A stretch of 64,000 nt of DNA from Fidelibacterota bacterium (lineage in GTDB: Bacteria; Fidelibacterota; Marinisomatia; SCGC-AAA003-L08; JACNLC01). Position numbers and translations under genes: made by a program. The first letter of the stretch is position 1. Every line of letters starts with the position of its first letter. The notes under the pieces are model-generated. The model was not told where the DNA came from. It made no database searches and saw only the letters and a program-made list of their open reading frames with translations. Positions 5,630 to 56,227 of this stretch are shown here, in pieces. The stretch covers positions 6,047-70,046 of the forward strand of contig JAJRUW010000068.1 of assembly GCA_024277615.1 (NCBI GenBank). Direction: 5' to 3'.

Positions 5630-8452
5630 TCAGAAAATTTCTTCAGATTCCAGCAGTACTTTATCAAAGCGTTGATAGGGAATGGGTTCAACCGGGAACG
5701 AGTCTAATATCACCGACCCGTAGCGCGCATTAAGCAGCCGCGGATCAGTAAAAATACAGACTCCCGTATCCTCCATACTGCGGATGAGCCGTCCGAAACC
5801 CTGTTTCATCCTGACGGTTGCATCCGGCACCGAATAATCCATGAAAGCATTCTTTCCCTCACGCTGAAAATTTTGAATTTTTGCAATTACCATAGGTTCC
5901 CTGGGGTTGGCGAAAGGAATTTTAACGATCATCAATGCTTCAACTTTATCGCCCGGCAGATCTACGCCTTCCCAGAAGCTGGCTGTGCCGATGAGTATTG
6001 CTCTGGAATGGGCCAGATAACCCCTGATTAATGCCAGACGATTGCTCCCCGGGACCTGAACAAATAGCCGGCGTTCACTCATATGCAGGGATGCCTGCAG
6101 AAAATCCTTCAGAGCCCTGGTTTGCTGATAGGAAGTGCATAAAACCAGCATCCGTTTGTGAAATTTGAGAGTGAAACGATCGATCTGCGCGGCCACTGCT
6201 TTCAGATAGTCCTGGCTGTTGATATTCAGGTCTGAAGAAAAAGTAAACAGTTTCATCTGGTCCTGATAGAGAAAGGGGGAATAATAGATTTCTTCACTGA
6301 TTTCCCGTTCCGGGGGGAGGTGATGCAAGCCGATAGTGTCGGACAGATATTTAAAACTGTAATCAACGGTTAGAGTGGCAGAGCAGACAAGACCGCCGGC
6401 CTCTCTGGAAAAAATACCCTCGGCAATGAATTGGCTCACGTCCCGCGGCGCACAGCTGAAGTTTGCATAAGTACGATTCCCATAGGTCGTAAAGGAAGAC
6501 CAGACTATATCTTCTCTGTCAACAGCCAGTACCCGGTCAAAAACGGTAAGTGTGGTCTGTAGTGAATTTGCAAGGATTTTCAGTTCCTGCACATACTCAC
6601 TTTTTTTCCCTGCAGGGATATTCCGGGCTGTACTGATAAATTCGCCCACCAAAGTATTGAAACCTTTCAGGGCTGTTGAAAGTTCTTCCGGAGGCGGTTG
6701 AATTCCCGCAAATTCATTTCCAGGATCATCAATGACATGGGTCACCTCGTATCTTGGGTTTTGTACAGTGGTTGCTCCCTTCTTTTGCTTGCTATAGGCA
6801 GTAAAAAAGGATCGCAGGGCAGTCTGCAGCTGTGTGACTTTATCCGACAATTCATTCTACAGGGAAGTCAATCTTTCGCTCTCTGAAAGCAGTGCTGTTA
6901 GTTTATCTCCAATCACGACCTGCTGGTCTGAAAAAAATGCGAAAATATCATCAAAAGAACGTTCGCCTACCCGGTTGATCAATTGATCACGGGCCGCCCT
7001 TTCGAGATTATGTCCTTCATCAATAACATAGCAGAATGTGGGTGGGAGGGTCATATTCCCCTGTATTGTATCACTCATAAGCAAAGCGTGGTTTACCACT
7101 ATGATATCGGCCTGCCCCAATGCATCCCTGACTTTACGCAGGAAACAACCCTCCTGCCGGTCACAGCGGGAACTGGTACAATATCCCGACTCACTGCGAA
7201 TTTTCGACCATAACCTGCCCGAACGTTGCAGCATAAAACCATTGCATTCACTCACATCTCCGGATTTTGTAAATTCCACCCAAACCAAGATTGGCAGGAT
7301 GTCCTCGCAGTCCTTTTCAGAGAGTACCCTGGCGCTGTTTTGAAGCAGTCTGTTCAGGCGTGTTTTACATAGATAATTATGGCGCCCTTTCAAAAGAATG
7401 GCATAAGTGTCAATATCTACAGCCGTGGATAAGGCGGGCAGGTCTTTATAGAATAATTGATCCTGCAGATTCTTTGTGTAAGTCGAAACGACCAAAGGAA
7501 TATCCGTATGTTTGCGATTCAGGAGTCCGGCCGAAAGATAGGCCAGGGATTTCCCCAGTCCCGTTCCGGCTTCGGCAAGATGAATTTGTCCGTTATTGAA
7601 AGTATTGTATGCATCGACGGCAAATTCGGTCTGGGCTTTACGGGATTCATAATCTTTCCAGTTTGACGGAATGACACCTCCTTCGCCAAACCATTCGTTT
7701 ATGGATTTTTCAACATTTACATTGGCCGAACCTGATTCATGACGGTAATAGAAATTTTTAATTTTTTTCTCGATATTTGAAGGAACCAATCCGTTGACTT
7801 CCTTCGCCCGTACAGCCAGGTTGATGATGTCTTTTAGCAGGGCCAGCCCGTGCAGGCGTGTATGCTTGACGGCGTCATAGAGTTTTTGAATGATATGAAG
7901 CGGATAGGAGGCAGCCTCGTGGATCAGATCCACGAAGATCAATCCGGTATTCTTCGTATCTGCCCCAGCCCGGTGTGCGCCTGCAGAAGAATAACCGAAA
8001 TACTCACTAATACCGCCAAGGTTGAATTCGTGATGAAAAAACAGGAAAGTTCTTGCCAGGATCAGCGTATCGTAGATTTCGTTCTGGATACTTGTAAATT
8101 GATTATTTTCCAAATCCTGCTCCAGAAATGAAAGGTCAAATTTGATCATGTGCCCCACAAGCGGCAACGAACCTATGAAATCCATCAGAGGCTGCAATAC
8201 TTCATCGATGGTAGGAGACGATTTCACCATTTCATCCGTGATTCCCGTCAATTCGATAATTTCAGTAGGGATCTTTTGTTGAGGGTTGACGAGGGTAGTG
8301 AACTCCTCAACAGGTAAACCCTGCTCAAAGCGATAAGCGGATATTTCTGTTATTGCATCTTTACCAGGAGTCAAACCGGTGGTCTCGAGGTCCAGGGCAA
8401 TGAAGCGGTTCAGTTGCAGGGCGTCCAGTAGTTCGGAGATTTTCAAGTTCAA
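5630..8452 (-). pseudogene. dinG: DinG-family protein (DnaQ-like 3'-5' exonuclease domain + superfamily-2 helicase) interrupted by one in-frame TAG at 6857..6859
   Basis: The N-terminal ORF 6857..8452 has the exonuclease motif FIALDLETTGL, Walker A AEAGTGLGKSLAY and box II VIDEGHNLE. ORF 5630..6850 has the helicase C-terminal domain (GTASFWEGVDLPG, KQGFGRLIR). Both ORFs are in the same reading frame, separated by TAG-AAT-GAA. Confidence 0.85.
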
Positions 8453-9630
8453 ATCCCGGCAAATACTTTGATGACATCAACGATCAGGGAAGGTTTTTTG
8501 AATACACAGGCCTTGAAAATTCGAGTAAGTGTACGTTCATTTTCAGGTATCCGGCTTACTTCGTGCGCAATATTATTGAGCTCATCATCAGTGAGATTGA
8601 TGATCGTGTTTTTCATACGGTAAAAGCGGTTATGTGTATCCCCGAAATCCTTACGGATTTTTTGAACATAGGTCTGCAGGAATTTTACGGAGCAGTCACC
8701 GGTGTTGACAGCCCTGGCGGCTACTTGTCCCCCGATCCAGCCGGCTTTCATTCCTGAAATGATACCGCCGCCGGTCATGGCATTCACATGGTGGGCGGCA
8801 TCCCCGACCAGCAGTATTCCGTCAGCCACGGGTTTTTCCATCGGTTTAGCGCAGGGTACTCCGCCGCACATGGTGGTGAGAATAGAGGCCCCGGGATATT
8901 CACGCTGCAGGAATTCATCCAGATATCTTTTTGGGGATTTTTCTTTTGCAAGATGTCCGGCAACCCCAAGACCTATATTTGCACTGCGTTCACCCTTGGG
9001 AAAAACCCAAAGATAGCCTCCTGGTGCATAGCGCCGGCCGACATAAAAGACAATTCTATTGATGTCCAGATCAATATTTGCAACGGAATACTGGACGCAG
9101 GTCTCAATATCTTTCATTTTAACCTGTGTCCGGATACCGGCCCAGCGACCGACGCGGGATTCCACACCGTCCGCCCCGATAACTATTTTTGCCCTGATAC
9201 TGCGCGGTTCCCCGAGATACTCGAGGGTGACACCCCTGACAGCACCATCTTCAATAATTAACCCGTTCACATAGGATTTTGTATAGATCTCCGCCCCGGC
9301 GTTGGCAGCATCCTGCGCCAGGTCGTAATCGAAGAGCCGGCGGTGCAGGACGTATCCTTTCTGGTTCGTAAATTTTGCTTTAATGCGGGTCTCATCCGGC
9401 GCCACCAGACCAAAATGAGTGATGGAAGCTGCGATCCAGGAATCTTTGATTTCGACAAACTGCTTTAAACCCAGCTCCCCGACGGCTTCACCACAGCGCA
9501 CGGGATACCCGATGTCCCGATCTTTTTCCAAAAGGCAGACTGATGCACCGTTTACCGCGGCCATCTTTGCCGCCATGGAACCGCTGGGACCGCCGCCTAC
9601 AACGATGACATCATAACTATTTTTCATCAT
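8449..9630 (-). CDS. Geranylgeranyl reductase family FAD-dependent oxidoreductase
   Basis: It has YDVIVVGGGPSGSMAA (FAD Rossmann fold), PGGYLWVFPKG and LVGDAAHHVNAMTGGGI. I moved the start to ATG 9630/9627 (MMKNSYDV) because the longer ORF-track N-terminus overlaps the ferredoxin gene. The stop overlaps the dinG start (ATGA). Confidence 0.85.
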   Translation of the reverse strand: MMKNSYDVIVVGGGPSGSMAAKMAAVNGASVCLLEKDRDIGYPVRCGEAVGELGLKQFVEIKDSWIAASITHFGLVAPDETRIKAKFTNQKGYVLHRRLFDYDLAQDAANAGAEIYTKSYVNGLIIEDGAVRGVTLEYLGEPRSIRAKIVIGADGVESRVGRWAGIRTQVKMKDIETCVQYSVANIDLDINRIVFYVGRRYAPGGYLWVFPKGERSANIGLGVAGHLAKEKSPKRYLDEFLQREYPGASILTTMCGGVPCAKPMEKPVADGILLVGDAAHHVNAMTGGGIISGMKAGWIGGQVAARAVNTGDCSVKFLQTYVQKIRKDFGDTHNRFYRMKNTIINLTDDELNNIAHEVSRIPENERTLTRIFKACVFKKPSLIVDVIKVFAGI

Positions 9631-9796
9631 CCGACTCCAGAACTTCAATTGGACAGATTTCAACGCAGAGATCACAGTCGATACAAACTTTCGCATCAAT
9701 TGAAATAGCGGCTTCTTTCAATTCAATACAATCCACGGGACAGACTGCCACGCAGGTTCCACAGAAGTCACACCTGTTTTCTCTGATGCTAATCAT
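9617..9796 (-). CDS. 2x[4Fe-4S] dicluster ferredoxin (59 aa)
   Basis: It has two CxxCxxCxxxCP motifs (CDFCGTCVAVCP and CIDCDLCVEICP). I chose the start at ATG 9796 (MISIRENR), which overlaps the UbiA stop (TAG 9789..9791). Confidence 0.8.
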   Translation of the reverse strand: MISIRENRCDFCGTCVAVCPVDCIELKEAAISIDAKVCIDCDLCVEICPIEVLESDDEK

Positions 9797-10793
9797 TATC
9801 CACCACAAAAGTCGGGTAGTGCAGGTCAAAGCGATGCCAATAATAGTATTTTGACAGATAGAATACAACGAAGACTGCCGGAAACAGCAGCGGATAAATT
9901 GACATCACGAAAACCGCCAGGATCAGTATGGAATAGCGAATGGCCCGGAGCACGTCTTTGGTTTGATTCCGAATGAGTGTAACTGCATAGAACGGCAGCG
10001 ATACCAGGGCTGCTGTGGAACTGACCGGATCCGCAAGTTTATACCCCAACAAAAAGGCTGCCAGTACAAAAAGAGTTCCTATCAGGATCGTAGTCCGCTG
10101 ACCAAAGCGGACGGGGAATGTTTTGGCTCCGGTTTCCACATCACCTTTCAGATCGGGGATTGTAGTCAGCATGGAGGTTGCAGTGAAACAGAGCAGATAG
10201 GGGACGGCAACGAGCAGCATTTTCCAGCTGACGGCTCCCGCGAGGCCGGCACCTGTGGAGTGATAAACCTGTACCCAGCCCGAGCAGTAGATGATCAGGC
10301 CGGCCAGTGAATTTGTGAGCATGCCCAGGACCGGCTTTTTCTTAAAATGAAACGGTTCCAGGTTGTACAGAACCCCCCAGAAGAAATACAGCAAAAACCC
10401 CAACAACAGGGCAGACCAGCCCGGAATTACCAGCACAACCACGCCGATGGTGCCAAACCAAATCATTAGTTTACGAGCCTGTTCCGTCGAGATGATATTG
10501 CCTACCAGGAATAATTTTTTATTCAGACTGTCACTTTTTACATCCTTGATCTGATTCAGGATGAAAGTACTGCCTGATATCAATGTCACACCTATGAACA
10601 GAAATATCGTCGGGAAATCGTAGTTGACAATCCAAACCTGGTAACGGTCAATATTCATTCTGGCAGCTGCCATGCCTACGGTGAGCATTACCCAAACGGG
10701 GAAAAACAGTGTAGGCCGGAGTAAAAATAAACGGTCGAAGAGCGGTACTATTTTTTTGTGTACGGGATGATCCCGGAAAAACTTTTTAATCAT
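9789..10793 (-). CDS. UbiA-family integral-membrane prenyltransferase
   Basis: 334 aa with about 8-9 hydrophobic segments. The first Asp-rich motif is NQIKDVKSD (NxxxDxxxD) and the second is DLKGD (DxxxD). The start overlaps the purF stop by 8 nt. Confidence 0.8.
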   Translation of the reverse strand: MIKKFFRDHPVHKKIVPLFDRLFLLRPTLFFPVWVMLTVGMAAARMNIDRYQVWIVNYDFPTIFLFIGVTLISGSTFILNQIKDVKSDSLNKKLFLVGNIISTEQARKLMIWFGTIGVVVLVIPGWSALLLGFLLYFFWGVLYNLEPFHFKKKPVLGMLTNSLAGLIIYCSGWVQVYHSTGAGLAGAVSWKMLLVAVPYLLCFTATSMLTTIPDLKGDVETGAKTFPVRFGQRTTILIGTLFVLAAFLLGYKLADPVSSTAALVSLPFYAVTLIRNQTKDVLRAIRYSILILAVFVMSIYPLLFPAVFVVFYLSKYYYWHRFDLHYPTFVVDND

Positions 10794-12144
10794 GATTTCC
10801 TTTCGAAGTAACAGGATAATTTCCTGAAAAACAAGCCGTGCAGAAATGTTCTTTTTCTTCTCCCGTGGCTTTCAGCATTCCGTCAATGGATAAATAACCC
10901 AGGGAATCGACGTCAATGATGGTCTGCATTTCCGCCGCTGAATGCTCTGCGGCGATGAGCTCCGATGCGGTAGGGAAGTCCATCCCGTAAAAACAGGGGT
11001 GGCGCACAGGTGGGGAGCCGATTCGCACATGCACTTTTTTTACTCCCGATTCTCTCAGGAGCCGGGTTAATTTTTTCAGTGTCGTACCCCTGACGATCGA
11101 ATCATCTACTACAACCACCTCACGATCTTTTAGTACACCGCTCACCGTGTTAAATTTGAGTTTAACGGATAGATCCCGCAGCCTTTGTGAAGGAAAGATG
11201 AAAGTTCTGCCCACATAGTGATTCCGTATCAGACCAATCTCGTATTTGAGGTTTGCGCGCCGGGCGTAACCCAGGGCGTTGGTATTGCTGGAATCCGGTA
11301 CGGAGATTACGATGTCAGCTGTGGGTGCAGGCTGCTCATCTGCCAGAACTTTGCTGAATTTGCGTCTGAGTTTATCCACATTTTCATTGAAGATCCGGGA
11401 ATCGGGTCTGGAAAAATAAATGTGCTCAAAGATGCAGTGGCGGGGCTGCGTCTCCCGGAAGATCTGTTTTGTGTGCAGGCCATCCGAATTGATTACCAGC
11501 ATTTCGCCGGGCCGGATGTCCCGGATGTAATCTGCACCCAGCAGGTCGAAGGCACAGGTTTCAGATGCGAGAATATGGGCATCTTTCAGTCTGCCGAGGC
11601 AGAATGGGCGGATACCATGGGGGTCCCTGGCAGCGATTAGTTCGTCAGGCGTGATGACCAGCAGGGAATAAGCCCCGGCGACCTTTTGCAGAGCACGTTC
11701 AAGGCGGTCTGCGACCGATTTACCCTGCTCCCGGGCCAGCAGGTGGATGATGATCTCCGTATCCGTGGAAGTCTGAAAAATTGCGCCCTCTCTCTGCAGG
11801 CGGCGACGCATTTCAACTGCATTCACCAGATTCCCGTTGTGTGCAATGGAGATGGGAATGTCATCTACATCGAACATGAGCGGTCCCACATTTTTCCGGT
11901 CACTTTCGCCGGTAGTGGAGTAGCGCACATGTCCGATGGCGGAATCTCCCTGCAGCCCTTCAAAAACACGGGGTTCGCTGAAAATGTCTGAGACGAGCCC
12001 TTCGCCCATATAGCGAAACAACGCACCGTCATTTGCTGAAACGATCCCGGCGCCTTCCTGTCCCCGGTGCTGCTGGGCATAGAGCCCCATATAGGCCAGT
12101 GTGGAGGCTTCCGAATTATTGTAAATTCCCATGATCCCGCACAT
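10786..12144 (-). CDS. purF: Amidophosphoribosyltransferase
   Basis: It has the MCGIMGIY N-terminal nucleophile Cys, a PRTase motif VVVVDDSIVRGTT and C-terminal cluster cysteines (CTACFSGNYP). Confidence 0.95.
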   Translation of the reverse strand: MCGIMGIYNNSEASTLAYMGLYAQQHRGQEGAGIVSANDGALFRYMGEGLVSDIFSEPRVFEGLQGDSAIGHVRYSTTGESDRKNVGPLMFDVDDIPISIAHNGNLVNAVEMRRRLQREGAIFQTSTDTEIIIHLLAREQGKSVADRLERALQKVAGAYSLLVITPDELIAARDPHGIRPFCLGRLKDAHILASETCAFDLLGADYIRDIRPGEMLVINSDGLHTKQIFRETQPRHCIFEHIYFSRPDSRIFNENVDKLRRKFSKVLADEQPAPTADIVISVPDSSNTNALGYARRANLKYEIGLIRNHYVGRTFIFPSQRLRDLSVKLKFNTVSGVLKDREVVVVDDSIVRGTTLKKLTRLLRESGVKKVHVRIGSPPVRHPCFYGMDFPTASELIAAEHSAAEMQTIIDVDSLGYLSIDGMLKATGEEKEHFCTACFSGNYPVTSKGNHD

Positions 12145-19244: not shown

Positions 19245-22163
19245 TCACACCTCCACCAGCTTTTCAAATAACTGTCCAGCGGCTTCAATTTTTGATTTAT
19301 TGCCGATAACACAGCGATAGGGATTCTCCATAAGTTGCACAAAATGGGGTGCCATGGCTTTCAAGTCATTTACTGTGGTGGTCTTGATCTCACGCATGAG
19401 GTTAAGGCGGTATTCGGGAGTGACACCGCTGAGCAGATCGTTCCTGGCGCGTAGCCCCGTCATGGCTGGTGAGAGCAGAGGATCAAATTTCCCGAAAGTG
19501 CGGATAATCCAGTGTTCCATAACCTCCCGGCTGACTGACAGTTCTGCAATGGCCGCAGGAATCTTATTAAAAGTGTTATATGTTTCTGCAACATTGGGGT
19601 CCCGGTAACTGATGAAAAAGGTATTGCCTGTGAGGATATTGCTTTCGATCCAGGTACCGTAGGCTCCGCCCTTTACGCGGATGGCGTTGTGCAGATAATC
19701 ATGGCTCAGAATGGATTTAAGAACTTCGAGCCTGCCGGAATATGGCAAACCAGTTTCAAAGAGTTTTCCGCCCTGAACGGCAAAAACTATCTCGGCAGGG
19801 ACAATGAAAGCCTCATTCAGGGGGTGACCTGTAAAGTTGCGCGGTACATCTTCCCGGGTGTTATTGCCGAAGCTGTCAATCAGCCGGGGCAGATGTTTGT
19901 CAATAATTTTGATATCTTCCTCTGAGGCTGTGATTGCAAGGGTAAGATTATCCCGGTTGAACAGTATCTCTTTCATCAGCGACAGGGTAGCCAGCAGCTG
20001 CTCTTCCTGTTCATCGTAGTGCTGAACAAGGTCCCGCAGTTTGAAAAAAGCGGTTATTCCGTTTACGGCCTCCTGGTACTTACCGTTTTCCGAGAGATAT
20101 GAGCTGACCCGGGAGAGCGGAATGCCCGTACCGCCTTTTCTGATGGCTTGTTCGGTCCAGGTATAATTCCGTTCGACAATCTGACGGATTCGCTGACGGT
20201 CATGGAATGAAACATTTTTAAAGATGTCAGCAACCAGCTCCAATGCCTGGGGCAGGTAACTCCGCAGGACCTTGACGTTGAACCACTGGATTGGGTGAAA
20301 CTCAAGGGGGTTATTTAACTGCATATGATTGGCAAAATCCGCGCTGAAGTCACCGGTGTATCTGGCAAGCTCTTTGGCGATGGTCATATAATTACGATCT
20401 GCAGTACCGATCTCGGTGACGAGATTAGCAAAGAGTTTCAGCCAGGGCAGCAGCTCTGTGGGGAGGGCTGAGACATCGAGACCGATATTCAGATAGGTTA
20501 TGGAATTGGTAAAAAGTTCGGTCGTTATGCAGGGGATATCCCTGATCTTCTGAACCTGTGCGGTGCGTATGTCCACTTTTTCGGGAATATCCGAGAGGTT
20601 TAAGCACGGGAGCAGTTTCAGTTTTTCCGGCGGATTGGGCGTTTCCTGGTATTTTAATAAATCCCCGGTGGTCTGCACCAGCCGGCCAACCTGGTCGGGT
20701 GTAAGAGATTTGCGAAAGGTTTCCAGTTTTGTCCGGGTCGCAGCGGCAATTCGTTCGCTTTTGCCGGGATCGGGGAACGCCGTCAAAAAGACATACTGTT
20801 GATTCTCGATGAGATATTCACGGATCAGGTCCTCGAAATATCGGCCCTCCAGTGCTTCCTCACGGATGGCCCGGAAGAGTTCTTCAAATTTGAGCACTTC
20901 AAAAGGGTCCAGATTATTAAAACTGGCGGAAGTTGCCGCCTGCAGGTAGTTCAGTCCCCGCTGTGACTTCAGAGATTTCTCACGCTCCGAAAACTCCACC
21001 GAATTCAGTTCAGCCAGAACCAGGTCCTTATCGAGACCTGTATCACAGATCTGACGCAGCGAATCAAAATAGCGGGTCCGGAATTTTTCTTTATCGTTTT
21101 CGTCGGCTCCAATTAAAACCGTAAACATGGATGTACAGGGCATGTTGTCGGTGAAAAAACCCACCAGGTCTTTACCCAAACCGGCTGACAAAACGGCGGC
21201 TTTCAGGGGGGAGGCATCGGAATAATACAATATGTTGCCGATGATGGCGAAGGCCAGATTTTTTTTGTATTCGGCAAAGGGGAAAAGTTTTGTACACAGG
21301 GCAAAATAGGTTTTCCCCTCAAGCGTGTCATGCCTATTCACGGCGTAACCGATGCGTTCATCAACGGGGCCTTCGATGCTGTCACCGGGTATGAGGACCG
21401 CAGGCTGTCTCCCGGCCTCGAATTTTGACAGGAAATTCCCATCAATTCTGGCGAGCTCCGCATCCAGATCGGCATCTCCGTAAACGCCAATTACGGCATT
21501 CCCGGGATGATAAAATCTCTCGTGAAAAGCCCGAAATTCTTCGTAAGTAAGCTCGACAATATTTTCCGGGTTGCCCCCTGAATCCACGGCATAGGGTGTC
21601 CCCGGCAGCAGGGCCTTATAAACGGAGTTGTAGATCAGCCTGAGAGGGTCGGAATAGGCCCCTTTCATCTCATTGTAAACCACACCCACATATTTTAATT
21701 CATCTTCCGCCTTTCGCAATTCATGGTGCCAGCCCTCCTGTAAAAAGGTATTTTTTTCAAGCAGCGGGTTCAGGGTTACATCGAGATAAATATCCATGAG
21801 GTTGAAATATTCCTTCTCGTTGCGGGTGGCAAAAGGATAGACGGTTTTGTCGGAAGAAGTCATCGCATTGAGAAAGGTTACGAGTCCCGTTTTCATCAAT
21901 TCATCGAACAGATCTTTGACCGGATATTTTTTTGAGCCCGAAAGAACAGAGTGTTCGATGATGTGTGCCGCACCCGTCGAGTCCGCAGGCAGTGTGTGAT
22001 AGCTAACCGTAAAAGTTTTATTAGTATCATCATTTTTTATGGCAATCAGAGGAGTACCTGTTTTAACGTGCGTAAAAAGGTACAGCATCGATTTAATCTC
22101 ATCCACATATCCGGCTTCCTGCAGTTTGAATCCGTGATATTGTCGGCCAGTTGTATATTCCAT
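19245..22163 (-). CDS. M16C-family (PreP/falcilysin-like) zinc metallopeptidase
   Basis: About 972 aa. It has the inverted zinc motif HIIEH near the N-terminus (AAHIIEHSVLSGS). I chose the start at ATG 22163 (MEYTTGRQYHGF), which overlaps the TAA of the upstream gene as TAATG. The longer ORF-track form would overlap that gene by 160 nt. Confidence 0.85.
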   Translation of the reverse strand: MEYTTGRQYHGFKLQEAGYVDEIKSMLYLFTHVKTGTPLIAIKNDDTNKTFTVSYHTLPADSTGAAHIIEHSVLSGSKKYPVKDLFDELMKTGLVTFLNAMTSSDKTVYPFATRNEKEYFNLMDIYLDVTLNPLLEKNTFLQEGWHHELRKAEDELKYVGVVYNEMKGAYSDPLRLIYNSVYKALLPGTPYAVDSGGNPENIVELTYEEFRAFHERFYHPGNAVIGVYGDADLDAELARIDGNFLSKFEAGRQPAVLIPGDSIEGPVDERIGYAVNRHDTLEGKTYFALCTKLFPFAEYKKNLAFAIIGNILYYSDASPLKAAVLSAGLGKDLVGFFTDNMPCTSMFTVLIGADENDKEKFRTRYFDSLRQICDTGLDKDLVLAELNSVEFSEREKSLKSQRGLNYLQAATSASFNNLDPFEVLKFEELFRAIREEALEGRYFEDLIREYLIENQQYVFLTAFPDPGKSERIAAATRTKLETFRKSLTPDQVGRLVQTTGDLLKYQETPNPPEKLKLLPCLNLSDIPEKVDIRTAQVQKIRDIPCITTELFTNSITYLNIGLDVSALPTELLPWLKLFANLVTEIGTADRNYMTIAKELARYTGDFSADFANHMQLNNPLEFHPIQWFNVKVLRSYLPQALELVADIFKNVSFHDRQRIRQIVERNYTWTEQAIRKGGTGIPLSRVSSYLSENGKYQEAVNGITAFFKLRDLVQHYDEQEEQLLATLSLMKEILFNRDNLTLAITASEEDIKIIDKHLPRLIDSFGNNTREDVPRNFTGHPLNEAFIVPAEIVFAVQGGKLFETGLPYSGRLEVLKSILSHDYLHNAIRVKGGAYGTWIESNILTGNTFFISYRDPNVAETYNTFNKIPAAIAELSVSREVMEHWIIRTFGKFDPLLSPAMTGLRARNDLLSGVTPEYRLNLMREIKTTTVNDLKAMAPHFVQLMENPYRCVIGNKSKIEAAGQLFEKLVEV

Positions 22164-25039
22164 TATTCGTTGGTTTCCTTCAGAGGTTTTGTTTGTTTGT
22201 CGGAGACCGGTTCCGGTTCCGTATTCAGTGAGTCGAGGACGGCTTTCCAGAATGTGCCGCCCGAGTCTTTCAGTTCGGCAATGAGTTGCTTCCGCAGGGA
22301 GGGGCTTTGAAAGCGGATCCACTCCCTGAAAATTTTAGCGGATGAATCCATTTCCACGACATTTGAGATCAATTTCAGAGTTTCACCCCGTAAATTTATA
22401 TCGGTATGCCGCAGGATTTTCAGAAAAACCGGCATGCTCAATTTGGCTTTGGTTCTCTTGAGCCCCTGTATGAAGCTGTTTCGCACGAGCTGACTGGAAT
22501 CCGCAAAGATGATAGGCAGATAGAATTCCACATGGGCCGGGTTCAGCGTCCCGATGGCATAGGCTGTCCGCATGCGGACATGGACATGTTCATCCTGAAG
22601 CAGGGGGGAGAGCGCGGGGGTTGCATCCTGGTCGCCGATCCTGCCAAGCTGCAGAGCCGCTAATGCCCGGGTCTGCCAGTGCGGGGAGTTAGTCAGATGC
22701 GTCAATGCCGGCAGAGCTTCCCGGACTTTTTTATTTCCTGCAACCCGGGCACACATTGAGACCACCGCGCGGCGGGCTGATGCGAGAGAGTCGGTCAGTA
22801 AAGTTTTATAAGCCGTGGAATCCGGTCCTTCCAGCATTTTATTAAGCAATGCTTCCAGTGCATGCCGTTCCCGTGCGGAAGAGGTGTTCAGTCTGGTTTT
22901 CAAAAAAGGCAGCGCTTGAGCACCACGGGCGATAATTGCATCCCTTGCAGGCTGCACATTATACTGAAATTTTTGGGGCGCTGCCGAAGCTTGTATAAAA
23001 AGGCTGTCAACCGTTGAGGCCAGAGGTATTTTCAATTCATCCGGTGGCGTCAGCAGGGGGTCGGTCCTTTCGGGAAGCAGATCGGGGAACAGGTCGTAAT
23101 CGGCAAAGATGCCGAAAGTTGATTTACGGCTGACGGTATTGTTGCCTTCCTTGCTGCCATACAGGTCAATACCGGCTCCATCTGCAAAAATACCTATCAT
23201 GCCGTAATTGCGGCGGAAGTCGGAATACCCCAGCATGTTTTTCAGGTTTCTGGCAATATAGCTGTCATCTCCTTTTTCATCAATCAAAACGGAGATAGCG
23301 TTTGCATTACCGCCGCCCATTGAGAGGCTTTCGGCAGTATAATCATCGTCTCCTGCGAGATCAAACAGGCCGCCAAAGGCAATATCATGGCCGCAGCCCT
23401 GGGATACGCCGTGGGAATAATAATGATCGTTACCTTTTAAATCCAGCAGCACGGCATGGGCGAGGTGGATGCCCGCCCCCTGGGCATACTGGTAGGCCAG
23501 ATAGCGATCATCTCCCTCCCGGTCGTAAAGGCTTCCCAGACTGTACCAATAGGCCGTACCCTGCCCAAAGATATCCGTTTGATAAGTATCATTTCCCGCA
23601 TAGTCAAAAAGCATCCCGATACCTCCGGATGCCAAAGGGCGGTAACCGAGTCCGGCACCCTGAGTGAAGGCCACGAAATGTGTATCGTAGCGCAGGAAAT
23701 CCTGAAAAGGACTGGTGGTGGCATAAACATCGTTACCCGAATAGTCGGCGACGGCACCGAACCCTCTCGTGAAGCCGAAGCCCTGGGCCTGGGCGTAACT
23801 GCGGTACAGATCGCTGCCTGATTTATCCAGTAATAAGCCCAGACCAAAAGCGCCGCTGCCCTCCACACAGGTTTTTCCGGAGTAGAGATCGTTTCCGGCG
23901 GAATCCACGAGAATACCGGCTCCAAACAGACCCGAGCCGAGAGCAAAATTGCCGGCTGCGTAATAGTCGTCGCCGTTTAGATCAAAGAGCAGCGAAGCCC
24001 CGAAAAACCCGCTGCCGAAAGCAAAATCCCCGCCCAGATATCGATCATCCCCGGCCGTATCAATGATGACCCTCACAGGCTGTTTAAGCATTGCGGATTT
24101 GTCCATGTCCGGCAGCAGATAAGTATCATCCCCGCCAAAGTCAATGATGAGCAAAAAGTCGCCGGAGTGCACATCGTTTCCGGTTCCGCCAAAGCGGATA
24201 TCGCCGTAATCCGTATGTACAGTTCTGGTCTTGATCTCTTGTTTTAACCGGATTGAATCAAGCGTGGAATAGATCAGCGAAAATAAGTCCAGTGTGGGGA
24301 TCAGAATTTCATTCAGGTCAAATTTTTCTGCTGCCGAAAAAAAATCCGCCGCCGTCTTTTCACTTTCCATCTCACTTTTTTTCAAGTCCCAGATTGACAT
24401 ATCCTGGGACTCCTCGGACATGAGCAGCATAGAATCGGCCTGTGTCGTGATTCGGTGCAGCAGTGTAGAATCCACAGAGGCCAGATACTGTGATAATCTA
24501 GCGGATGTGGTCATCGAAGAGCTGATGATCTTTAGCACCGATTGCGTGGTTTCACTGGGCCTAAGAGATTTTGCCGCCAAGGCCTGTGACAACTTATTCC
24601 ATACTCCAACGGGAACCGCCTTCCAGAAAGGCAGCGCCGGCTTTTCGGTAGTCGGGATGCTGCGGGAAAGGATCTTCATGAGTGCCTGTCTGGAAATAAT
24701 CGTGTCGGTAATGGTTTCCCGCATGTAGTCCAGGAAAGCAGCGGGGTGAGCGTAGAGGCTGTCGGCAAATTGTTCGGTAAGCGGCGCAAGCCCGGCGGGG
24801 TTGTCGAAAGTATCTTTGACAATAGAAAGACGCTGCGGGTCGTCGGGCACGACATCCCAGGGCAGCCATACATCTCCCCGGGACATATTCATCTCCACCA
24901 GGGCAGAATCCATCAGCCAGAAAGCATGATCAAAGGTTCCGCCAAAACATGGTAAAACCAAAAGGTACAGTAATGTTGCTGTACAGCTGAATCTCCGGAA
25001 AGAAATGGCGGGAAGGGATTTCCGGTTACGAAAGCTCAA
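22163..25039 (-). CDS. Secreted repeat protein: about 12 D-x-x-G-(N/D)-D-x-Y beta-solenoid-like repeats plus C-terminal HEAT repeats
   Basis: It has a signal-like N-terminus (LLYLLVLPCFGG). Repeats such as DSAGNDLYSG, DKSGSDLYRS, DYSGNDVYAT, DYAGNDTYQT and DLKGNDHYYS are separated by GxGxFG stretches (aa ~284-628). The C-terminus has HEAT-like units (SPHWQTRALAALQLGRIGD, DEHVHVRMRTAYAIGTL). Confidence 0.6.
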   Translation of the reverse strand: MSFRNRKSLPAISFRRFSCTATLLYLLVLPCFGGTFDHAFWLMDSALVEMNMSRGDVWLPWDVVPDDPQRLSIVKDTFDNPAGLAPLTEQFADSLYAHPAAFLDYMRETITDTIISRQALMKILSRSIPTTEKPALPFWKAVPVGVWNKLSQALAAKSLRPSETTQSVLKIISSSMTTSARLSQYLASVDSTLLHRITTQADSMLLMSEESQDMSIWDLKKSEMESEKTAADFFSAAEKFDLNEILIPTLDLFSLIYSTLDSIRLKQEIKTRTVHTDYGDIRFGGTGNDVHSGDFLLIIDFGGDDTYLLPDMDKSAMLKQPVRVIIDTAGDDRYLGGDFAFGSGFFGASLLFDLNGDDYYAAGNFALGSGLFGAGILVDSAGNDLYSGKTCVEGSGAFGLGLLLDKSGSDLYRSYAQAQGFGFTRGFGAVADYSGNDVYATTSPFQDFLRYDTHFVAFTQGAGLGYRPLASGGIGMLFDYAGNDTYQTDIFGQGTAYWYSLGSLYDREGDDRYLAYQYAQGAGIHLAHAVLLDLKGNDHYYSHGVSQGCGHDIAFGGLFDLAGDDDYTAESLSMGGGNANAISVLIDEKGDDSYIARNLKNMLGYSDFRRNYGMIGIFADGAGIDLYGSKEGNNTVSRKSTFGIFADYDLFPDLLPERTDPLLTPPDELKIPLASTVDSLFIQASAAPQKFQYNVQPARDAIIARGAQALPFLKTRLNTSSARERHALEALLNKMLEGPDSTAYKTLLTDSLASARRAVVSMCARVAGNKKVREALPALTHLTNSPHWQTRALAALQLGRIGDQDATPALSPLLQDEHVHVRMRTAYAIGTLNPAHVEFYLPIIFADSSQLVRNSFIQGLKRTKAKLSMPVFLKILRHTDINLRGETLKLISNVVEMDSSAKIFREWIRFQSPSLRKQLIAELKDSGGTFWKAVLDSLNTEPEPVSDKQTKPLKETNE

Positions 25040-28363: not shown

Positions 28364-28951
28364 CTACTTTCTTATGAAAATAAGTTTTAAAATATTATAA
28401 TTATAGAGAAGATAATGAAACCCGGTATATGCGGTTACAGCAGTGGTGAATACCATCAGAATGTAAATAATGTGGTACTGTGTAAAATAGTTTGAAATCC
28501 GGAACCAGTGATAGCTGTTCAATACGAAATAGATGAGGATCAAATGAATGACTATCATCTGCAGAGTAGTTTTCAGTTTTCCGGCCCGACTGGTCTTCAT
28601 GGTGACTCCTTTCAGTTGCATGATCATCCGCAGAACTGTTACCACCACATCCCGGAAGGCGATTAAAAGGAGCATCCATAATTTTATTTCGCCGAAAATC
28701 CAGAAAGAGACAAAGGCTGAGAGCACCAGAAATTTATCTGCCAGCGGATCGAGAAAGACACCGACCTTGGTCACAACGCCGTATTTTCGGGCAATGCGCC
28801 CGTCGAAAGCATCTGTGATCGAGGCAATGATAAAAACGATCAGCGCAAATGTCTTACCATGTGAGATTCCTGAAAACAAAAAGTACAGGAAAAGCGGAGT
28901 TAATAAAATCCTACCGATAGTCAGCAGATTCGGGACATGTCTCTTACCCAT
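28364..28951 (-). CDS. pgsA: CDP-diacylglycerol--glycerol-3-phosphate 3-phosphatidyltransferase
   Basis: It has the CDP-alcohol phosphatidyltransferase motif DAFDGRIARKYGVVTKVGVFLDPLADK. It lies in pgsA-pgpA-cinA-recA synteny. Confidence 0.85.
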   Translation of the reverse strand: MGKRHVPNLLTIGRILLTPLFLYFLFSGISHGKTFALIVFIIASITDAFDGRIARKYGVVTKVGVFLDPLADKFLVLSAFVSFWIFGEIKLWMLLLIAFRDVVVTVLRMIMQLKGVTMKTSRAGKLKTTLQMIVIHLILIYFVLNSYHWFRISNYFTQYHIIYILMVFTTAVTAYTGFHYLLYNYNILKLIFIRK

Positions 28952-29881: not shown

Positions 29882-31534
29882 CTATCTGATAATTTCACCA
29901 TTAAATTTTTCAATAATATCCGACATAAGAGGGTGGTCGCGTTCCGGTTCAACGGGTTTTACGGCACTCTGCTTTGCCAGTGTCGGATTAGATTTAAATT
30001 TTATTCTGACAGATGTTCCTAAAACATCCTTTGCAATACTTTCTATTGTGGGTTTGTCTTTTTCCAGACTGCGTACCGTGAATCCATTTTCGTTATTTAA
30101 TCGTACAGCAAGCTGCCCGCCCGTAAAGGTCAGCAATTCCGATCCCTGTAAAAAATGAGCAATTTTATAATTAACAAGCCCAAGTTTTTCCAAAACTGTA
30201 GGCCATTTTTCACAGATAAATTCCAAATTAATCGACTCGGGAGTTACTGTCTGATGCCTAAGCGAAGCAGGATCGGGCTCGGAGACATGAGTTGGTTTTC
30301 GGTTGTGGGTGGTCAGAGGCTTGCCGTTCGACTCAGGCGGTGTTTTCGCGGCGGCATCTTGAGCAGTACCGGTAACGGTTTTACTTTTTCGCTGAGGTCG
30401 GGGTGTTACGCGTCTGGTCTTGTCAGCGAGGAGCTCAGAGATCAGCACAGATGAATCCATGGCGGCTAATTTTAGAAAAAGGGCTTCCAGGGCAACCCGG
30501 GGCTGCTGTAAGAATCTCAACCGCGATTCAAATTTTAGTACGAGTTCGATCATTCTGAGCAGATCCAACCGGGAGACGGATTGACTGTTCTCCAAAAGCC
30601 AGTTAACAACGGCTCTATCTAACCGTACTTTATCCGTTTGATCGCTTAAAACGAAAAGACATTTCCGCAGAAAAGCATTAAAGCCGGTTATGAAATTAGG
30701 GATGGAATAACCTGAATCCACAACTTCGGAAATTTTGGTAAGTAAAACATTGTAATTGGAATTAATTATTGCCCCAAGCAGTTCGAGATAGAGGGGATCC
30801 TCAATTATGCCAAGTACATCCTTTACGATGGATTCCTCAATATCATTCTCACAATAAGCAATTATCTGGTCCAATAAACTAAGGGAATCGCGCATGCTTC
30901 CATCTGCCTTTGTTGCAATGAGTTCCAGTGAATTCCCATCGTAGGACAATCCTTCCCGGATAAGTATCTGTCCCAGGTAAGCAGCAATGTCATCGGTGGT
31001 TAAGCGTTTGAAATCGAATCGCTGCGTGCGGGATAAAATTGTGAGCGGGATCTTTTGGGGGTCCGTTGTTGCCATGATAAAGATTACATGGGGAGGAGGT
31101 TCCTCGAGGGTTTTCAGGAGGGCATTAAAAGCCTGATGCGTTAACATATGCACTTCATCGATGATATAAATGCGGTATTTACCGGTTGCCGGGTGGTATT
31201 TGACGGCTTCACGCAGGTCACGGATTTCATCGATGCCGCGATTCGAGGCTCCATCTATCTCCAGGACGTCGATACTTCGTCCCTCGGTTATTTCCACACA
31301 ATTTACACAGGTACCGCAGGGATTATCATCTTTATAATGCTGACAATTCAGTGATTTGGCAAGTATTCTGGCAGCGGTAGTTTTTCCGATGCCCCTTGGA
31401 CCGGTAAACAAATAACCATGGGCAACGCGATTTAACCGAATTGCATTCTGCAGGGTTCGGGTTACATGCTGTTGGCCTGTAATCCCCTCAAAGACCATGG
31501 GGCGATATTTTCTGGATAGGACCTGATAACTCAT
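29882..31534 (-). CDS. dnaX: DNA polymerase III subunit tau/gamma
   Basis: I set the start at ATG 31534 (MSYQVLSRKYRPMVFEGITGQQHV). It has Walker A GPRGIGKTT, the zinc module CGTCVNC, and IIDEVHML. The ORF-track N-terminal extension (to 31810) runs through the SRP RNA gene and is not credible. Confidence 0.93.
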   Translation of the reverse strand: MSYQVLSRKYRPMVFEGITGQQHVTRTLQNAIRLNRVAHGYLFTGPRGIGKTTAARILAKSLNCQHYKDDNPCGTCVNCVEITEGRSIDVLEIDGASNRGIDEIRDLREAVKYHPATGKYRIYIIDEVHMLTHQAFNALLKTLEEPPPHVIFIMATTDPQKIPLTILSRTQRFDFKRLTTDDIAAYLGQILIREGLSYDGNSLELIATKADGSMRDSLSLLDQIIAYCENDIEESIVKDVLGIIEDPLYLELLGAIINSNYNVLLTKISEVVDSGYSIPNFITGFNAFLRKCLFVLSDQTDKVRLDRAVVNWLLENSQSVSRLDLLRMIELVLKFESRLRFLQQPRVALEALFLKLAAMDSSVLISELLADKTRRVTPRPQRKSKTVTGTAQDAAAKTPPESNGKPLTTHNRKPTHVSEPDPASLRHQTVTPESINLEFICEKWPTVLEKLGLVNYKIAHFLQGSELLTFTGGQLAVRLNNENGFTVRSLEKDKPTIESIAKDVLGTSVRIKFKSNPTLAKQSAVKPVEPERDHPLMSDIIEKFNGEIIR

Positions 31535-31670
31535 TTTGCAACCGATTATTAAGAGACAATCAACTGAAATTACACCCAGGGTAACATAAAAACGATACCG
31601 ATACCGGGAAATATCCGGGAACCTTGTTCCCGACCGAATTTCCAAAACTTTTGTTAGTTTTATAATTGGA

Positions 31671-31945
31671 CAAATCTGTGCACCGCAGGTTGAACCCTCT
31701 GTTTGAAAGCTTTTTGATGCAGCCAGCTCAGCCCCAGATTTCTGCGGCACATGCTCAAGACAGCTACCGCTGCTTCCTTCCGGACCTGACGGGGTTCGAT
31801 GCCAGAACATTGCGCAGAGCTGAAAGCATCAACACTACTTACATCAATTGGCCAGCTCAGCAGAGCCCGCCCTGCGATTTTCGACCCTGCTTAAGCGGGT
31901 TTCAGGTTACAGGAAACCGCTAGCTTCCCATCTAGCACAGATTTG
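31671..31945 (-). ncRNA. ffs: Signal recognition particle RNA, large (Bacillus-type, Alu-domain-containing) form
   Basis: The minus strand contains GUCAGGUCCGGAAGGAAGCAGC (plus 31769..31790), the helix-8 signature. The 5' part, UGUGCUAGAUGGGAAGCUAGCGGUUUCCUGUAACCUGAAACCCGCUUAAGCAGGGUCGAAAAUC, resembles the B. subtilis scRNA Alu domain as I recall it. An 11-bp perfect closing helix joins 5' CAAAUCUGUGC (31935..31945) and 3' GCACAGAUUUG (31671..31681). The position upstream of dnaX matches Bacillus synteny. Confidence 0.85.
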
Positions 31946-32018
31946 TGGAGTTGAAGGGGCTTGAACCCTCGACCTCTGCATTGCGAACGCAGCGCTCTCC
32001 CAACTGAGCTACAACCCC
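31946..32018 (-). tRNA. tRNA-Ala (anticodon CGC), CCA not encoded
   Basis: The reverse complement is GGGGTTGTAGCTCAGTTGGGAGAGCGCTGCGTTCGCAATGCAGAGGTCGAGGGTTCAAGCCCCTTCAACTCCA. It folds as a cloverleaf with a 7-bp acceptor stem including the G3:U70 alanine identity pair, anticodon loop TTCGCAA and T-loop GGTTCAAGCC. The 3' flank is CAA, not CCA. Confidence 0.93.
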
Positions 32019-54563: not shown

Positions 54564-55502
54564 ATGTTTTCCGACCTGATCAACAAGATTCGGCAGAGCG
54601 ACAGAACAGCCGTTGCCCGGGCGATTACCGCTATTGAGAACTCTCTGCCCGGACATGAGGAAATTCTTGCCGCTATTTATCCCTTCAGGGGCAGGGCCTT
54701 CCGCATCGGAATAACGGGTCCCCCAGGCGCCGGTAAAAGCTCTCTCACGGACAAATTGGTGACGCTCTACCGGCAACAGCAAAAAAAAGTCGCCGTAATT
54801 GGCGTTGATCCTACCAGTCCGTTCACCGGCGGCGCGCTTCTGGGCGATCGTATCCGAATGCTGGGCCACTTTGCTGATCCCGGCGTTTTTATCCGCAGTA
54901 TGGGCAGCCGCGGAGGGCATGGCGGACTGGCCCGCAAGACGCAGGAGGTGGGGGATGTGTTCGAAGCGGCCCGTTTTGATATTATTCTCTTTGAAACTGT
55001 CGGCGTCGGGCAGGTTGAACTGGATGTTGTCCAGGCTACCGACTCGGTGGTAGTGGTGCTGGTGCCGGAATCCGGCGATGAAATCCAGATGATGAAGGCA
55101 GGTCTTATGGAAATCGGCGATCTTTTCGTGATCAATAAGGCCGACCGTGACGAGGCCCGGAAATTGCAGGTCACATTGAACAATATCCTCAACTCTGCTC
55201 CCCGGTCGGCCGGGCAGTGGAAACCCGAAGTGCTGTTGACCGTGGCCACGACCGGTGACGGAGTGGACCCGCTCTTTCAAAAGATCGGGGCTCACTTGGA
55301 ATACCTCAGCGAAACAGGACTGTGGCAGCAGAAAATGAATGCCCGTTATACGCGTCAGGTCCGGGATCAGGTTGTCAGGCAGTTTAACAACTCTTTCTGG
55401 ACTCCTCAAAAAGAAAAAGCTCTTCAGGACCAGCTTGACCGTGAGCCGGGGGCAAGGATCAACCCTTTTAAACTGGCGGGGAGTCTCTTCACGAATGACT
55501 AA
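54564..55502 (+). CDS. meaB: Methylmalonyl-CoA mutase-associated GTPase MeaB/ArgK
   Basis: It has RAITAIEN, the P-loop GITGPPGAGKSSL, GGALLGDRIRM, ETVGVGQ and INKADRD. Confidence 0.9.
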   Translation: MFSDLINKIRQSDRTAVARAITAIENSLPGHEEILAAIYPFRGRAFRIGITGPPGAGKSSLTDKLVTLYRQQQKKVAVIGVDPTSPFTGGALLGDRIRMLGHFADPGVFIRSMGSRGGHGGLARKTQEVGDVFEAARFDIILFETVGVGQVELDVVQATDSVVVVLVPESGDEIQMMKAGLMEIGDLFVINKADRDEARKLQVTLNNILNSAPRSAGQWKPEVLLTVATTGDGVDPLFQKIGAHLEYLSETGLWQQKMNARYTRQVRDQVVRQFNNSFWTPQKEKALQDQLDREPGARINPFKLAGSLFTND

Positions 55503-56226: not shown

Positions 56227-56227
56227 G

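Follow-up and report, generated by a model that had tools for sequence, protein, structure and literature searches.

A prenyltransferase, ferredoxin and geranylgeranyl reductase trio conserved across bacterial phyla, a candidate module for saturated isoprenoid membrane lipids

On the minus strand of a 64,000-nucleotide stretch of contig JAJRUW010000068.1 from a Fidelibacterota bacterium (hereafter the window, meaning the whole stretch analysed), three overlapping genes encode a UbiA-superfamily prenyltransferase, a small ferredoxin (Fd) and a flavoprotein of the geranylgeranyl reductase (GGR) family. The trio is conserved in at least three phyla; its reductase belongs, by sequence, to the archaeal lipid type, and its prenyltransferase forms a clade of its own. 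We read the three genes as an operon-like module for a saturated isoprenoid membrane lipid, and regard this reading as evenly balanced between right and wrong; an archaeal ether lipid as the product is plausible.

Conservation of the trio

The genes lie at the following positions, and their assignments agree with an earlier annotation made from the sequence alone (hereafter the original prediction).

9789-10793, minus strand: UbiA-superfamily prenyltransferase, 334 aa (PF01040, 91.2 bits against a gathering threshold of 34.2)
9617-9796, minus strand: ferredoxin, 59 aa, 2x[4Fe-4S] (PF00037, which matches twice, PF13237 and PF12838)
8449-9630, minus strand: GGR-family flavoprotein, 393 aa (TIGR02032 and PF22578)

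The window contains one UbiA-superfamily gene and one GGR gene in all. Relatives were collected by scanning one genome per GTDB species with a narrow UbiA alignment, a procedure biased towards copies that retain the RPTLFF motif; the scan gave 80 loci, and open reading frames (ORFs) were called in all loci and compared with the window proteins. Neighbouring UbiA, Fd and GGR genes were found in 73 of 86 related loci. These come from at least three phyla (Marinimicrobia/Fidelibacterota, KSB1 and Zhuqueibacterota, together with further metagenome-assembled genomes (MAGs)), with UbiA identities as low as ~30%. Of 77 loci, 61 have overlapping Fd and GGR genes and another 14 have them no more than 20 nt apart, while UbiA and Fd overlap in 32 of the 77, are spaced by 20 nt or less in 30 more, and are separated by up to 1 kb of inserted sequence in a few. 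The conserved core consists of the UbiA gene directly upstream of a tight Fd-GGR pair, and this arrangement cannot be due to chance.

The surroundings of the core differ between groups. The gene purF precedes UbiA in 69 of the 86 loci. Marinimicrobia have dinG after GGR; in 17 of 28 KSB1-type loci, the gene directly after GGR encodes a CDP-alcohol phosphatidyltransferase and is followed by ftsY and rimO, and the block order in L065-L092 (KSB1, Zhuqueibacterota and further MAGs) is purF-UbiA-Fd-GGR-(CDP-alcohol phosphatidyltransferase)-ftsY-rimO. In six loci, the CDP-alcohol phosphatidyltransferase gene follows UbiA at once, with neither Fd nor GGR between them. UbiA occurs without GGR in 13 loci. 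The homologues from WOR-3/Stahlbacteria adjoin genes for a lipid-A-type acyltransferase, a GT4 glycosyltransferase and a deacetylase, or rpmB, and none of them has a GGR neighbour; in three WOR-3 loci (L011, L012 and L094), a run of dUTPase, lipid-A-type acyltransferase, GT4 and polysaccharide deacetylase genes ends in UbiA and resembles glycolipid operons of the phosphatidylinositol mannoside kind. In the outlier loci, the genes inserted among UbiA, Fd, GGR and ftsY include no candidate of the size of geranylgeranylglyceryl phosphate synthase (GGGPS); they encode HAD hydrolase, TPR/lipoprotein, toxin-antitoxin or methylase proteins only.

Upstream of purF, 27 loci (e.g., L001:7616-8674, L007:5570-6619 and L049:7553-8605) carry genes for a ~350-aa PHP/CehA-McbA-like metallohydrolase and a DUF2279-like small protein, neither of which is present in the window. 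The ~350-aa protein was considered as a lipid enzyme and rejected, being PHP/CehA-like.

The neighbours of the trio in the window, both outside the proposed pathway, are as follows.

10786-12144, minus strand: purF, amidophosphoribosyltransferase (TIGR01134, 498 bits against a cut-off of 350), upstream housekeeping neighbour
5630-8452, minus strand: dinG (DnaQ-exonuclease/DinG helicase), downstream neighbour

All five genes stand within a single unbroken gene run on the minus strand from ~14.8 kb to 2.6 kb. The junctions were read from the sequence: the purF stop and UbiA start share 8 nt (ATGATTAA, 10786-10793), the UbiA stop and Fd start another 8 nt (ATGATTAG, 9789-9796), and the Fd stop and GGR start (ATGATGAAAAATAG) overlap by 14 nt with the ATG at 9630 or by 11 nt with the ATG at 9627. 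GGR and dinG meet in TTGA, a 4-nt overlap if the TTG at 8452 is the true start of dinG. The UbiA start call is backed by the N-terminus MIKKFF..HP.HKK, which is kept across the family. The original prediction had described these overlaps, both within the trio and at its two ends, and had concluded that they imply co-translation. The overlaps themselves were confirmed, while the conclusion reads too much into them: the window has 50 pairs of adjacent ORFs on the same strand, of which 19 overlap and another 15 are spaced by 0-10 nt, so gene overlaps are weak evidence by themselves. Those with purF and dinG carry no information on function, and the conservation of the trio is a stronger signal than any overlap. 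A promoter/terminator scan returned counts near those of shuffled controls.

Reductase and ferredoxin

The GGR belongs to its family by both models (TIGR02032, 229.3 bits against a cut-off of 158.8; PF22578 GGR_cat, 96 against 27), and aligns over its full length with the digeranylgeranylglycerophospholipid reductase of Thermoplasma acidophilum (3oz2, E 3.3e-71, residues 5-384 to 4-391). The sequence and the 3oz2 alignment contain the motifs defined for archaeal GGRs (PMC10821996), including GxGxxG for binding of flavin adenine dinucleotide (FAD), the RCGE cysteine (C46), PGGYLWVFP and LVGDAA. The protein stays under the cut-offs of the archaeal lipid-reductase equivalogs (NF041160, 261.7 against 780; NF041080, 179.6 against 580; NF041385, 83 against 700), yet these are still its best-scoring models. 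On the model of Thermoplasmatales lipid reductases it reaches 262 bits, compared with 132 on BchP/ChlP (cut-off 343), 55 on FixC and 49.5 on MenJ. By these sequence comparisons, the GGR is of the archaeal lipid type. A reading of GGR and Fd as FixC/FixX was rejected, given 55 bits on FixC against 229 for the GGR family.

Fd has two CxxCxxCxxxCP motifs (C9/12/15/19-P and C38/41/44/48-P), as expected of clostridial-type 2x[4Fe-4S] ferredoxins, and its gene adjoins that of GGR, with the 14-nt overlap given above, as in the system of Methanosarcina acetivorans. According to a review (PMC10821996; see also ref. 83 of PMC7852524), the M. acetivorans GGR requires a ferredoxin from its own locus as its in vivo reductant, so the precedent cited in the original prediction is correct. 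Fd is presumed to be the electron donor to GGR.

A separate clade of UbiA prenyltransferases

One NCBI protein is 100% identical to the window UbiA. The closest named relatives of the window UbiA come from an 'FCB group bacterium' (FCB, Fibrobacteres-Chlorobi-Bacteroidetes; 86%) and from Candidatus (Neo)Marinimicrobia (~50-64%), and the named members of the family carry generic annotation only. An exhaustive search among 50%-identity representatives gave 848 relatives at E<=1e-3, of which 434 also reach E<=1e-10. The clade is found in Marinimicrobia, KSB1, Zhuqueibacterota and WOR-3, and is near-universal in Marinimicrobia. Membership in PF01040 is supported by the score, two Asp-rich motifs and a polytopic all-helical fold; the hallmarks of the family are N-Q-x2-D-x3-D-x2-N-K, P-D-x2-G-D, a conserved N-terminal helix and the C-terminal tail YYxxRFxxxYP. 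The motifs were compared with the digeranylgeranylglyceryl phosphate (DGGGP) synthase of Methanocaldococcus jannaschii (MjDGGGPS).

10530-10556, minus strand: first Asp-rich motif N80-Q-x2-D84-x3-D88, aligning to N62, D66 and D70 of MjDGGGPS; intact in 88 of 92 locus copies
10140-10154, minus strand: second Asp-rich motif D214-x2-G-D218, aligning to D183 and D187 of MjDGGGPS, with Thr as the equivalent of D180
9813-9845, minus strand: C-terminal tail Y-Y-W-H-R-F-x3-Y-P, family-specific, with (near-)invariant Y317, R321, F322 and P327

In addition, Y143 of the window protein aligns to Y125 of MjDGGGPS. Mutation of N62, D66, D70, Y125, D183 or D187 impairs MjDGGGPS, and these are catalytic or positioning residues (PMC9385802).

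The AlphaFold2 model of the window UbiA is all-helical, with a mean predicted local distance difference test (pLDDT) value of 93.5. In Foldseek, the DGGGP synthase (DGGGPS) structures 7bpu and 6m31 come first, followed by AfUbiA, ApUbiA, UBIAD1 and a mycobacterial phosphoribosyltransferase (PRTase), with TM-scores all in the range 0.5-0.63; the matches at E<1e-3 are UbiA-family structures only. A UbiA-family profile searched against all PDB sequences matches only MjDGGGPS (6m31, E 4.8e-14) and ChlG (1.3e-8). DGGGPS is the nearest characterised relative of the clade by profile and by fold, and is not its family. A neighbour-joining (NJ) tree with 200 bootstraps, which sampled ten DGGGPS, all of them euryarchaeal, four MenA, Escherichia coli UbiA, CyoE and a ChlG fragment, recovered the UbiA family, DGGGPS and MenA each as monophyletic in 100% of bootstraps; the deep groupings are unsupported (family with DGGGPS 1%, with MenA 56%, with DGGGPS and ChlG 20%). 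On the family profile, members score 330-430 bits, DGGGPS at most 53, ChlG 50 and MenA at most 41. From the tree and the reciprocal profile scores, the window UbiA therefore represents a subfamily of its own, of a rank equal to DGGGPS, ChlG or MenA. Being separate from the DGGGPS family, the clade may thus act like DGGGPS without being one, or take another acceptor.

Among the curated NCBIfam models, the window UbiA stays under all equivalog cut-offs; PRK12884 'prenyltransferase' is the best (46 bits), and homogentisate phytyltransferase (HPT) gives 40.8. The MenA models (TIGR00751 and PRK06080) yield at best a partial match of 33.7 bits against 264, and the ChlG/BchG models 34 against 212 (TIGR01476) and 32 against 313 (NF005742). 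The identities ChlG/BchG, HPT, CyoE and E. coli-type UbiA were rejected on curated cut-offs and profile scores. Several Marinimicrobia relatives encode a separate bona fide MenA (TIGR00751, 140.5 bits against a cut-off of 102), so the UbiA of the trio is not the missing menaquinone prenyltransferase, and a MenA identity was rejected. The original prediction had named a robust placement within the MenA or BchG clades as evidence against itself; no such placement emerged, and in the tree the MenA clade excludes the family in all bootstraps. The prenyltransferase of the trio is neither MenA nor ChlG.

A related alternative is that the enzyme puts a prenyl or phytyl group on an aromatic head (menaquinone-, tocopherol- or plastoquinone-like) and that tail saturation by GGR with Fd comes before the transfer, the order known from ChlP, or follows it, as with MenJ and the menaquinone prenyl reductase of Archaeoglobus. 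The weak HPT, BchG and MenA matches are of the same order as those to DGGGPS, the tree joins the family to MenA in 56% of bootstraps, and one Marinimicrobia subclade has a MenA gene 5-6 kb downstream of GGR. However, relatives already possess a MenA above its curated cut-off, the family profile has no match to ApUbiA, AfUbiA, UBIAD1 or another aromatic prenyltransferase in PDB at E<=10, and the GGR gets only 49.5 bits from the MenJ model, compared with 262 from that of Thermoplasmatales lipid reductases. Moreover, the surroundings of the trio contain no chlorophyll, quinone-ring or tocopherol genes, either in the window or in relatives, which agrees for the window with the absence of chlorophyll and quinone-ring genes noted in the original prediction. 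We consider aromatic prenylation improbable.

The downstream MenA genes just mentioned are L001:17488-18432, L036:7609-8625 and L007:15372-16757; that of L007 is fused to an N-terminal domain resembling the FMN-binding (flavin mononucleotide) PNPOx domain, which is an unusual architecture.

Part of the family shows decay of the catalytic motifs. Of 252 full-length UbiA-family representatives, 43 are without one or both Asp-rich motifs, and 37 of these 43 retain the YYxxRFxxxYP tail. Such copies include L007:8001-8948 (P0269), L006:8001-9038 (P0123), P0124, P0134, P0142, P0153 and P0156, and at least those of L007 and L006 are still in purF-UbiA-Fd-GGR synteny. The copies without Asp motifs may be pseudo-enzymes or scaffolds; as a sub-variant, the UbiA-like protein may serve as a non-catalytic membrane partner of Fd-GGR where the motifs have decayed.

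Proposed pathway and alternative explanations

In the proposed pathway, the UbiA-clade enzyme would first take a polyprenyl diphosphate as donor and attach the polyprenyl chain to an acceptor within the membrane, as the enzyme's retained Mg2+/diphosphate-binding Asp motifs and the confident all-helical UbiA-superfamily model suggest; the acceptor would most probably be a glycerol-phosphate-based lipid, as for DGGGP synthase, the nearest solved relative. Next, the 2x[4Fe-4S] Fd would hand low-potential electrons to the FAD of the archaeal-type GGR, and GGR would hydrogenate the isoprenoid double bonds, as homology and the conserved gene coupling suggest by comparison with the M. acetivorans GGR and its neighbouring ferredoxin. 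Finally, a CDP-alcohol phosphatidyltransferase paralogue might add the polar head group, a step suggested only by the synteny in KSB1-type loci. Also in favour of the saturated-lipid reading are the separate MenA of relatives and the Euryarchaeota-like GGRs that Villanueva et al. 2021 described in FCB genomes. Three further genes of the window are relevant here.

56195-57204, plus strand: polyprenyl diphosphate synthase, in two ORFs with a -1 frameshift in an A-run (gaaaag) near 56838
57208-57795, plus strand: divergent CDP-alcohol phosphatidyltransferase paralogue (PF01066; pgsA model, 72.9 bits against a cut-off of 109)
28364-28951: canonical pgsA (119.8 bits on the pgsA model)

The prenyl donor may come from the polyprenyl diphosphate synthase. 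With its two ORFs joined by hand, this protein scores 216 bits on HepT, 213 on IdsA (archaeal) and 205 on IspB; these scores are nearly equal and all under cut-off, so the chain length of its product is ambiguous. Behind it, transferase, ftsY and rimO genes form the segment 57208-59993, which is 46 kb from the trio and on the opposite strand. The divergent transferase is a possible distant partner of the trio, its homologue standing directly after GGR or UbiA in KSB1-type loci.

Several observations weigh against the saturated-lipid reading. The window UbiA is far under the DGGGPS cut-offs (NF009521, 38.6 against 296; NF009522, 32.1 against 353; NF009512, 31.5 against 278), a DGGGPS profile ranks ChlG (80 bits) and E. 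coli UbiA (55) over it (40.6), and its family lies outside euryarchaeal DGGGPS in the tree, with a deep placement that lacks support. UbiA enzymes have been reported to cluster by acceptor (PMC9385802), so the separate clade hints at a different one. The conserved block includes the unrelated housekeeping genes purF, ftsY and rimO, so the synteny with the CDP-alcohol transferase may reflect inherited gene order and not functional linkage, and the WOR-3 homologues stand without Fd and GGR among genes of the envelope-glycolipid type. No GGGPS, glycerol-1-phosphate dehydrogenase (G1PDH) or CarS was recognised in the window or related loci, in a search that was weak. For GGGPS, phmmer gave no match in the window and 92 related loci (L001-L092, ~1.3 Mb), a weak negative because the query was an unverified group-I Archaeoglobus sequence. 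According to Villanueva et al. 2021, Cloacimonetes-type GGGPS and DGGGPS are each found in Marinimicrobia but never together in one genome of that phylum, while KSB1 has both; finally, fatty acids were the only lipids analysed in the sole cultured representative of the phylum (PMC11652737).

The most specific form of the saturated-lipid reading is the strict archaeal pathway, and its probability is counted within that of the broader reading, of which a true DGGGPS-like ether-lipid reaction takes about half. Here UbiA would be a functional DGGGP synthase that adds the second geranylgeranyl chain to geranylgeranylglyceryl phosphate from a GGGPS encoded elsewhere, and GGR with Fd would then give an archaeol-type phospholipid. 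The proximity to DGGGPS by profile and fold, the alignment of catalytic residues with MjDGGGPS and the archaeal lipid type of the GGR all suit this pathway, as do published data. The survey of Coleman et al. 2019 covered 12 FCB phyla and reported 'orthologues' of GGGPS and DGGGPS from every one of them, including one Marinimicrobia MAG with a GGGPS (OIO64010.1) and a 'DGGGPS' (OIO65800.1); Villanueva et al. showed that GGGPS and DGGGPS from Cloacimonetes produce unsaturated archaeol-phosphatidylglycerol in E. coli. On the occurrence of the two genes in one Marinimicrobia genome, the published picture is mixed. However, UbiA fails the membership tests for DGGGPS by cut-offs, tree and reciprocal profile, no GGGPS gene is adjacent in any of the 92 related loci, and G1PDH has been reported among FCB phyla only from Fibrobacteres and Cloacimonetes (Coleman et al.). 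The UbiA clade is near-universal in Marinimicrobia, yet no single genome of that phylum has the Cloacimonetes-type pair, so the clade is apparently not what the surveys counted as DGGGPS; the 'DGGGPS' OIO65800.1 was absent from the 10 UbiA-family clusters checked by accession. In KSB1, which has canonical GGGPS and DGGGPS, the UbiA clade would therefore be redundant as a DGGGPS. This redundancy and the mismatch with the surveys weaken the strict archaeal pathway, which we think rather unlikely, while a DGGGPS-like reaction on another glycerolipid acceptor remains compatible with them. Of the archaeal-style lipid module put forward in the original prediction, the reductase part stands, given the match to 3oz2; the prenyltransferase part is not supported, UbiA being outside the DGGGPS family by every membership test run.

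The WOR-3 gene clusters bring in polyprenyl-phosphate carriers. UbiA might act on a polyprenyl phosphate, for instance in a reaction with phosphoribosyl pyrophosphate (PRPP) like that of the mycobacterial decaprenylphosphoryl-5-phosphoribose (DPPR) synthase, and GGR with Fd would then produce a dolichol-like, partly saturated glycan carrier. This would fit the WOR-3 homologues in clusters of Lip_A_acyltrans, GT4 and polysaccharide deacetylase genes, the PRPP-using purF directly upstream in 69 of 86 loci, the Foldseek match to the membrane PRTase 8j8k (E 4e-4) and a faint DPPR-synthase match of one KSB1-type UbiA member (E 2.8e-4). It is countered by the lack of a match of the sequence profile to 8j8k/8j8j at E<=10, by the window purF, which is a bona fide housekeeping equivalog, by the resemblance of the GGR to lipid GGRs, and by the fact that glycan genes do not adjoin the trio in Marinimicrobia or KSB1. 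Carrier chemistry is, in our view, a distinctly poor candidate.

It could also be that Fd and GGR are a functional pair and that the adjacency of UbiA is merely inherited order in an old syntenic block (purF ... ftsY-rimO), with no shared pathway. The unrelated housekeeping genes in the block are consistent with such an origin, as are the looser spacing of UbiA and Fd compared with Fd and GGR (with insertions of up to 1 kb), the 13 loci with UbiA but without GGR, the WOR-3 homologues, which never occur with GGR, and the loss of catalytic Asp residues in 43 of 252 representatives, one of which (L007) is still beside Fd-GGR. On the other hand, genes whose proteins have diverged to 30% identity are still neighbours in different phyla, 62 of 77 loci showing gaps of at most 20 nt, and the products of UbiA and GGR both act on isoprenoids. 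We judge this explanation to be very unlikely.

Returning to the saturated-lipid reading, the UbiA clade and the Fd-driven GGR, with the CDP-alcohol transferase in KSB1, might even constitute a new bacterial route to saturated isoprenoid glycerolipids that does without the canonical GGGPS/DGGGPS pair; in it, the UbiA clade would be a bacterial lipid prenyltransferase not recognised before. This is a speculative proposal, which we consider improbable.

Other features of the window

The window dinG is split by an in-frame TAG at 6857-6859; in the 86%-identical relative L013 the position is Gln (CAG-type) and the 938-aa gene is intact. The TAG stems either from a nonsense mutation or from an error in sequencing. 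A large bacterial signal recognition particle (SRP) RNA (150 bits) was found at 31676-32018 on the minus strand, directly beside tRNA-Ala(CGC); the dnaX ORF 29882-31810 overlaps this RNA at its upstream end, so the true start of dnaX is probably further downstream. A type IV pilus/type II secretion-like cluster, read from ORF translations, occupies 33279-53291 on the minus strand, including pilins, GspE/PilB, two PilT, prepilin peptidase, PilQ secretin and PilM/N/O-like proteins. The G+C content is lower (~40%) between 32 and 40 kb. Finally, there is a 958-aa ORF at 22163-25039, and two ORFs of 312 and 295 aa at 54564-56226 were read by eye as MeaB/ArgK-like and TatC-like.

Significance

In the dark ocean, few uncultured bacteria are as abundant as Marinimicrobia (SAR406). 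Archaeal-type lipid genes with Euryarchaeota-like GGRs in the FCB group, and the pairing of ferredoxin with GGR in archaea, are already published. The new elements are the separate UbiA clade, its coupling to Fd-GGR across phyla, the CDP-alcohol transferase extension in KSB1 and the loss of catalytic motifs by some family members; a literature search found no paper describing the UbiA-Fd-GGR trio.

Possible archaeal-like isoprenoid lipids in FCB bacteria bear on the 'lipid divide' and on the reading of archaeal lipid biomarkers. The trio offers a concrete conserved target apart from the GGGPS/DGGGPS pair and a testable handle for SAR406 and KSB1, with the UbiA clade as the key component. If the trio makes an ether isoprenoid lipid, membranes of mixed type would be far commoner than Cloacimonetes alone suggest; should it make a saturated quinone or a carrier lipid instead, an 'archaeal-type GGR' in a bacterium would no longer be evidence of archaeal lipids. 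Should the new route exist, it would amount to a second, bacterial crossing of the 'lipid divide' in SAR406/Marinimicrobia, KSB1 and Zhuqueibacterota, in both ocean and sediment, and bacteria would become a possible origin of the phytanyl-type ether lipids in marine samples.

Comparison with known systems

By its confident all-helical model, the window UbiA shares the UbiA-superfamily fold with the archaeal DGGGP synthase of M. jannaschii (6m31/7bpu), and the N-x3-D-x3-D, D-x3-D and Y...K/P motifs align. Unlike that enzyme, to which it is only ~17-18% identical, it belongs to a separate clade far under the cut-offs, has Thr at the equivalent of D180 and K-K-L-F-L in place of R-P-L-P-S-G after motif 1, and possesses the extra invariant YYxxRFxxxYP tail and the conserved N-terminal helix. 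As for the M. acetivorans GGR and its ferredoxin, the gene arrangement is alike in that a GGR-family flavoprotein gene stands beside a small ferredoxin gene, and differs in the bacterial host, the overlapping genes and the UbiA gene ahead of them. The Thermoplasma acidophilum reductase 3oz2 aligns at full length and shares the FAD-binding and catalytic motifs, whereas the window GGR reaches only 262 bits against the 780-bit equivalog cut-off.

Among bacterial systems, the GGGPS-DGGGPS pair of Cloacimonetes and other FCB bacteria is likewise a case of archaeal-type lipid genes accompanied by Euryarchaeota-like GGRs. However, the DGGGPS of that pair is near the enzymes of TACK archaea (Thaumarchaeota, Aigarchaeota, Crenarchaeota and Korarchaeota) and co-localised with GGGPS, whereas the UbiA clade described here is linked to Fd-GGR and not to GGGPS. 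MenA/MenJ also combines a UbiA-family transferase and a GGR-family reductase on one isoprenoid chain, which differs from the trio in that relatives have a separate MenA gene and the window GGR gives only 49.5 bits on MenJ. ChlG/BchG with ChlP/BchP is another pairing of a UbiA-family enzyme with a GGR-family reductase, and ChlG is the second-best PDB profile match of the family; the window proteins nevertheless score 34 against 212 and 132 against 343 bits on the respective models, no photosynthesis genes are present here, and ChlP is not encoded with a ferredoxin.

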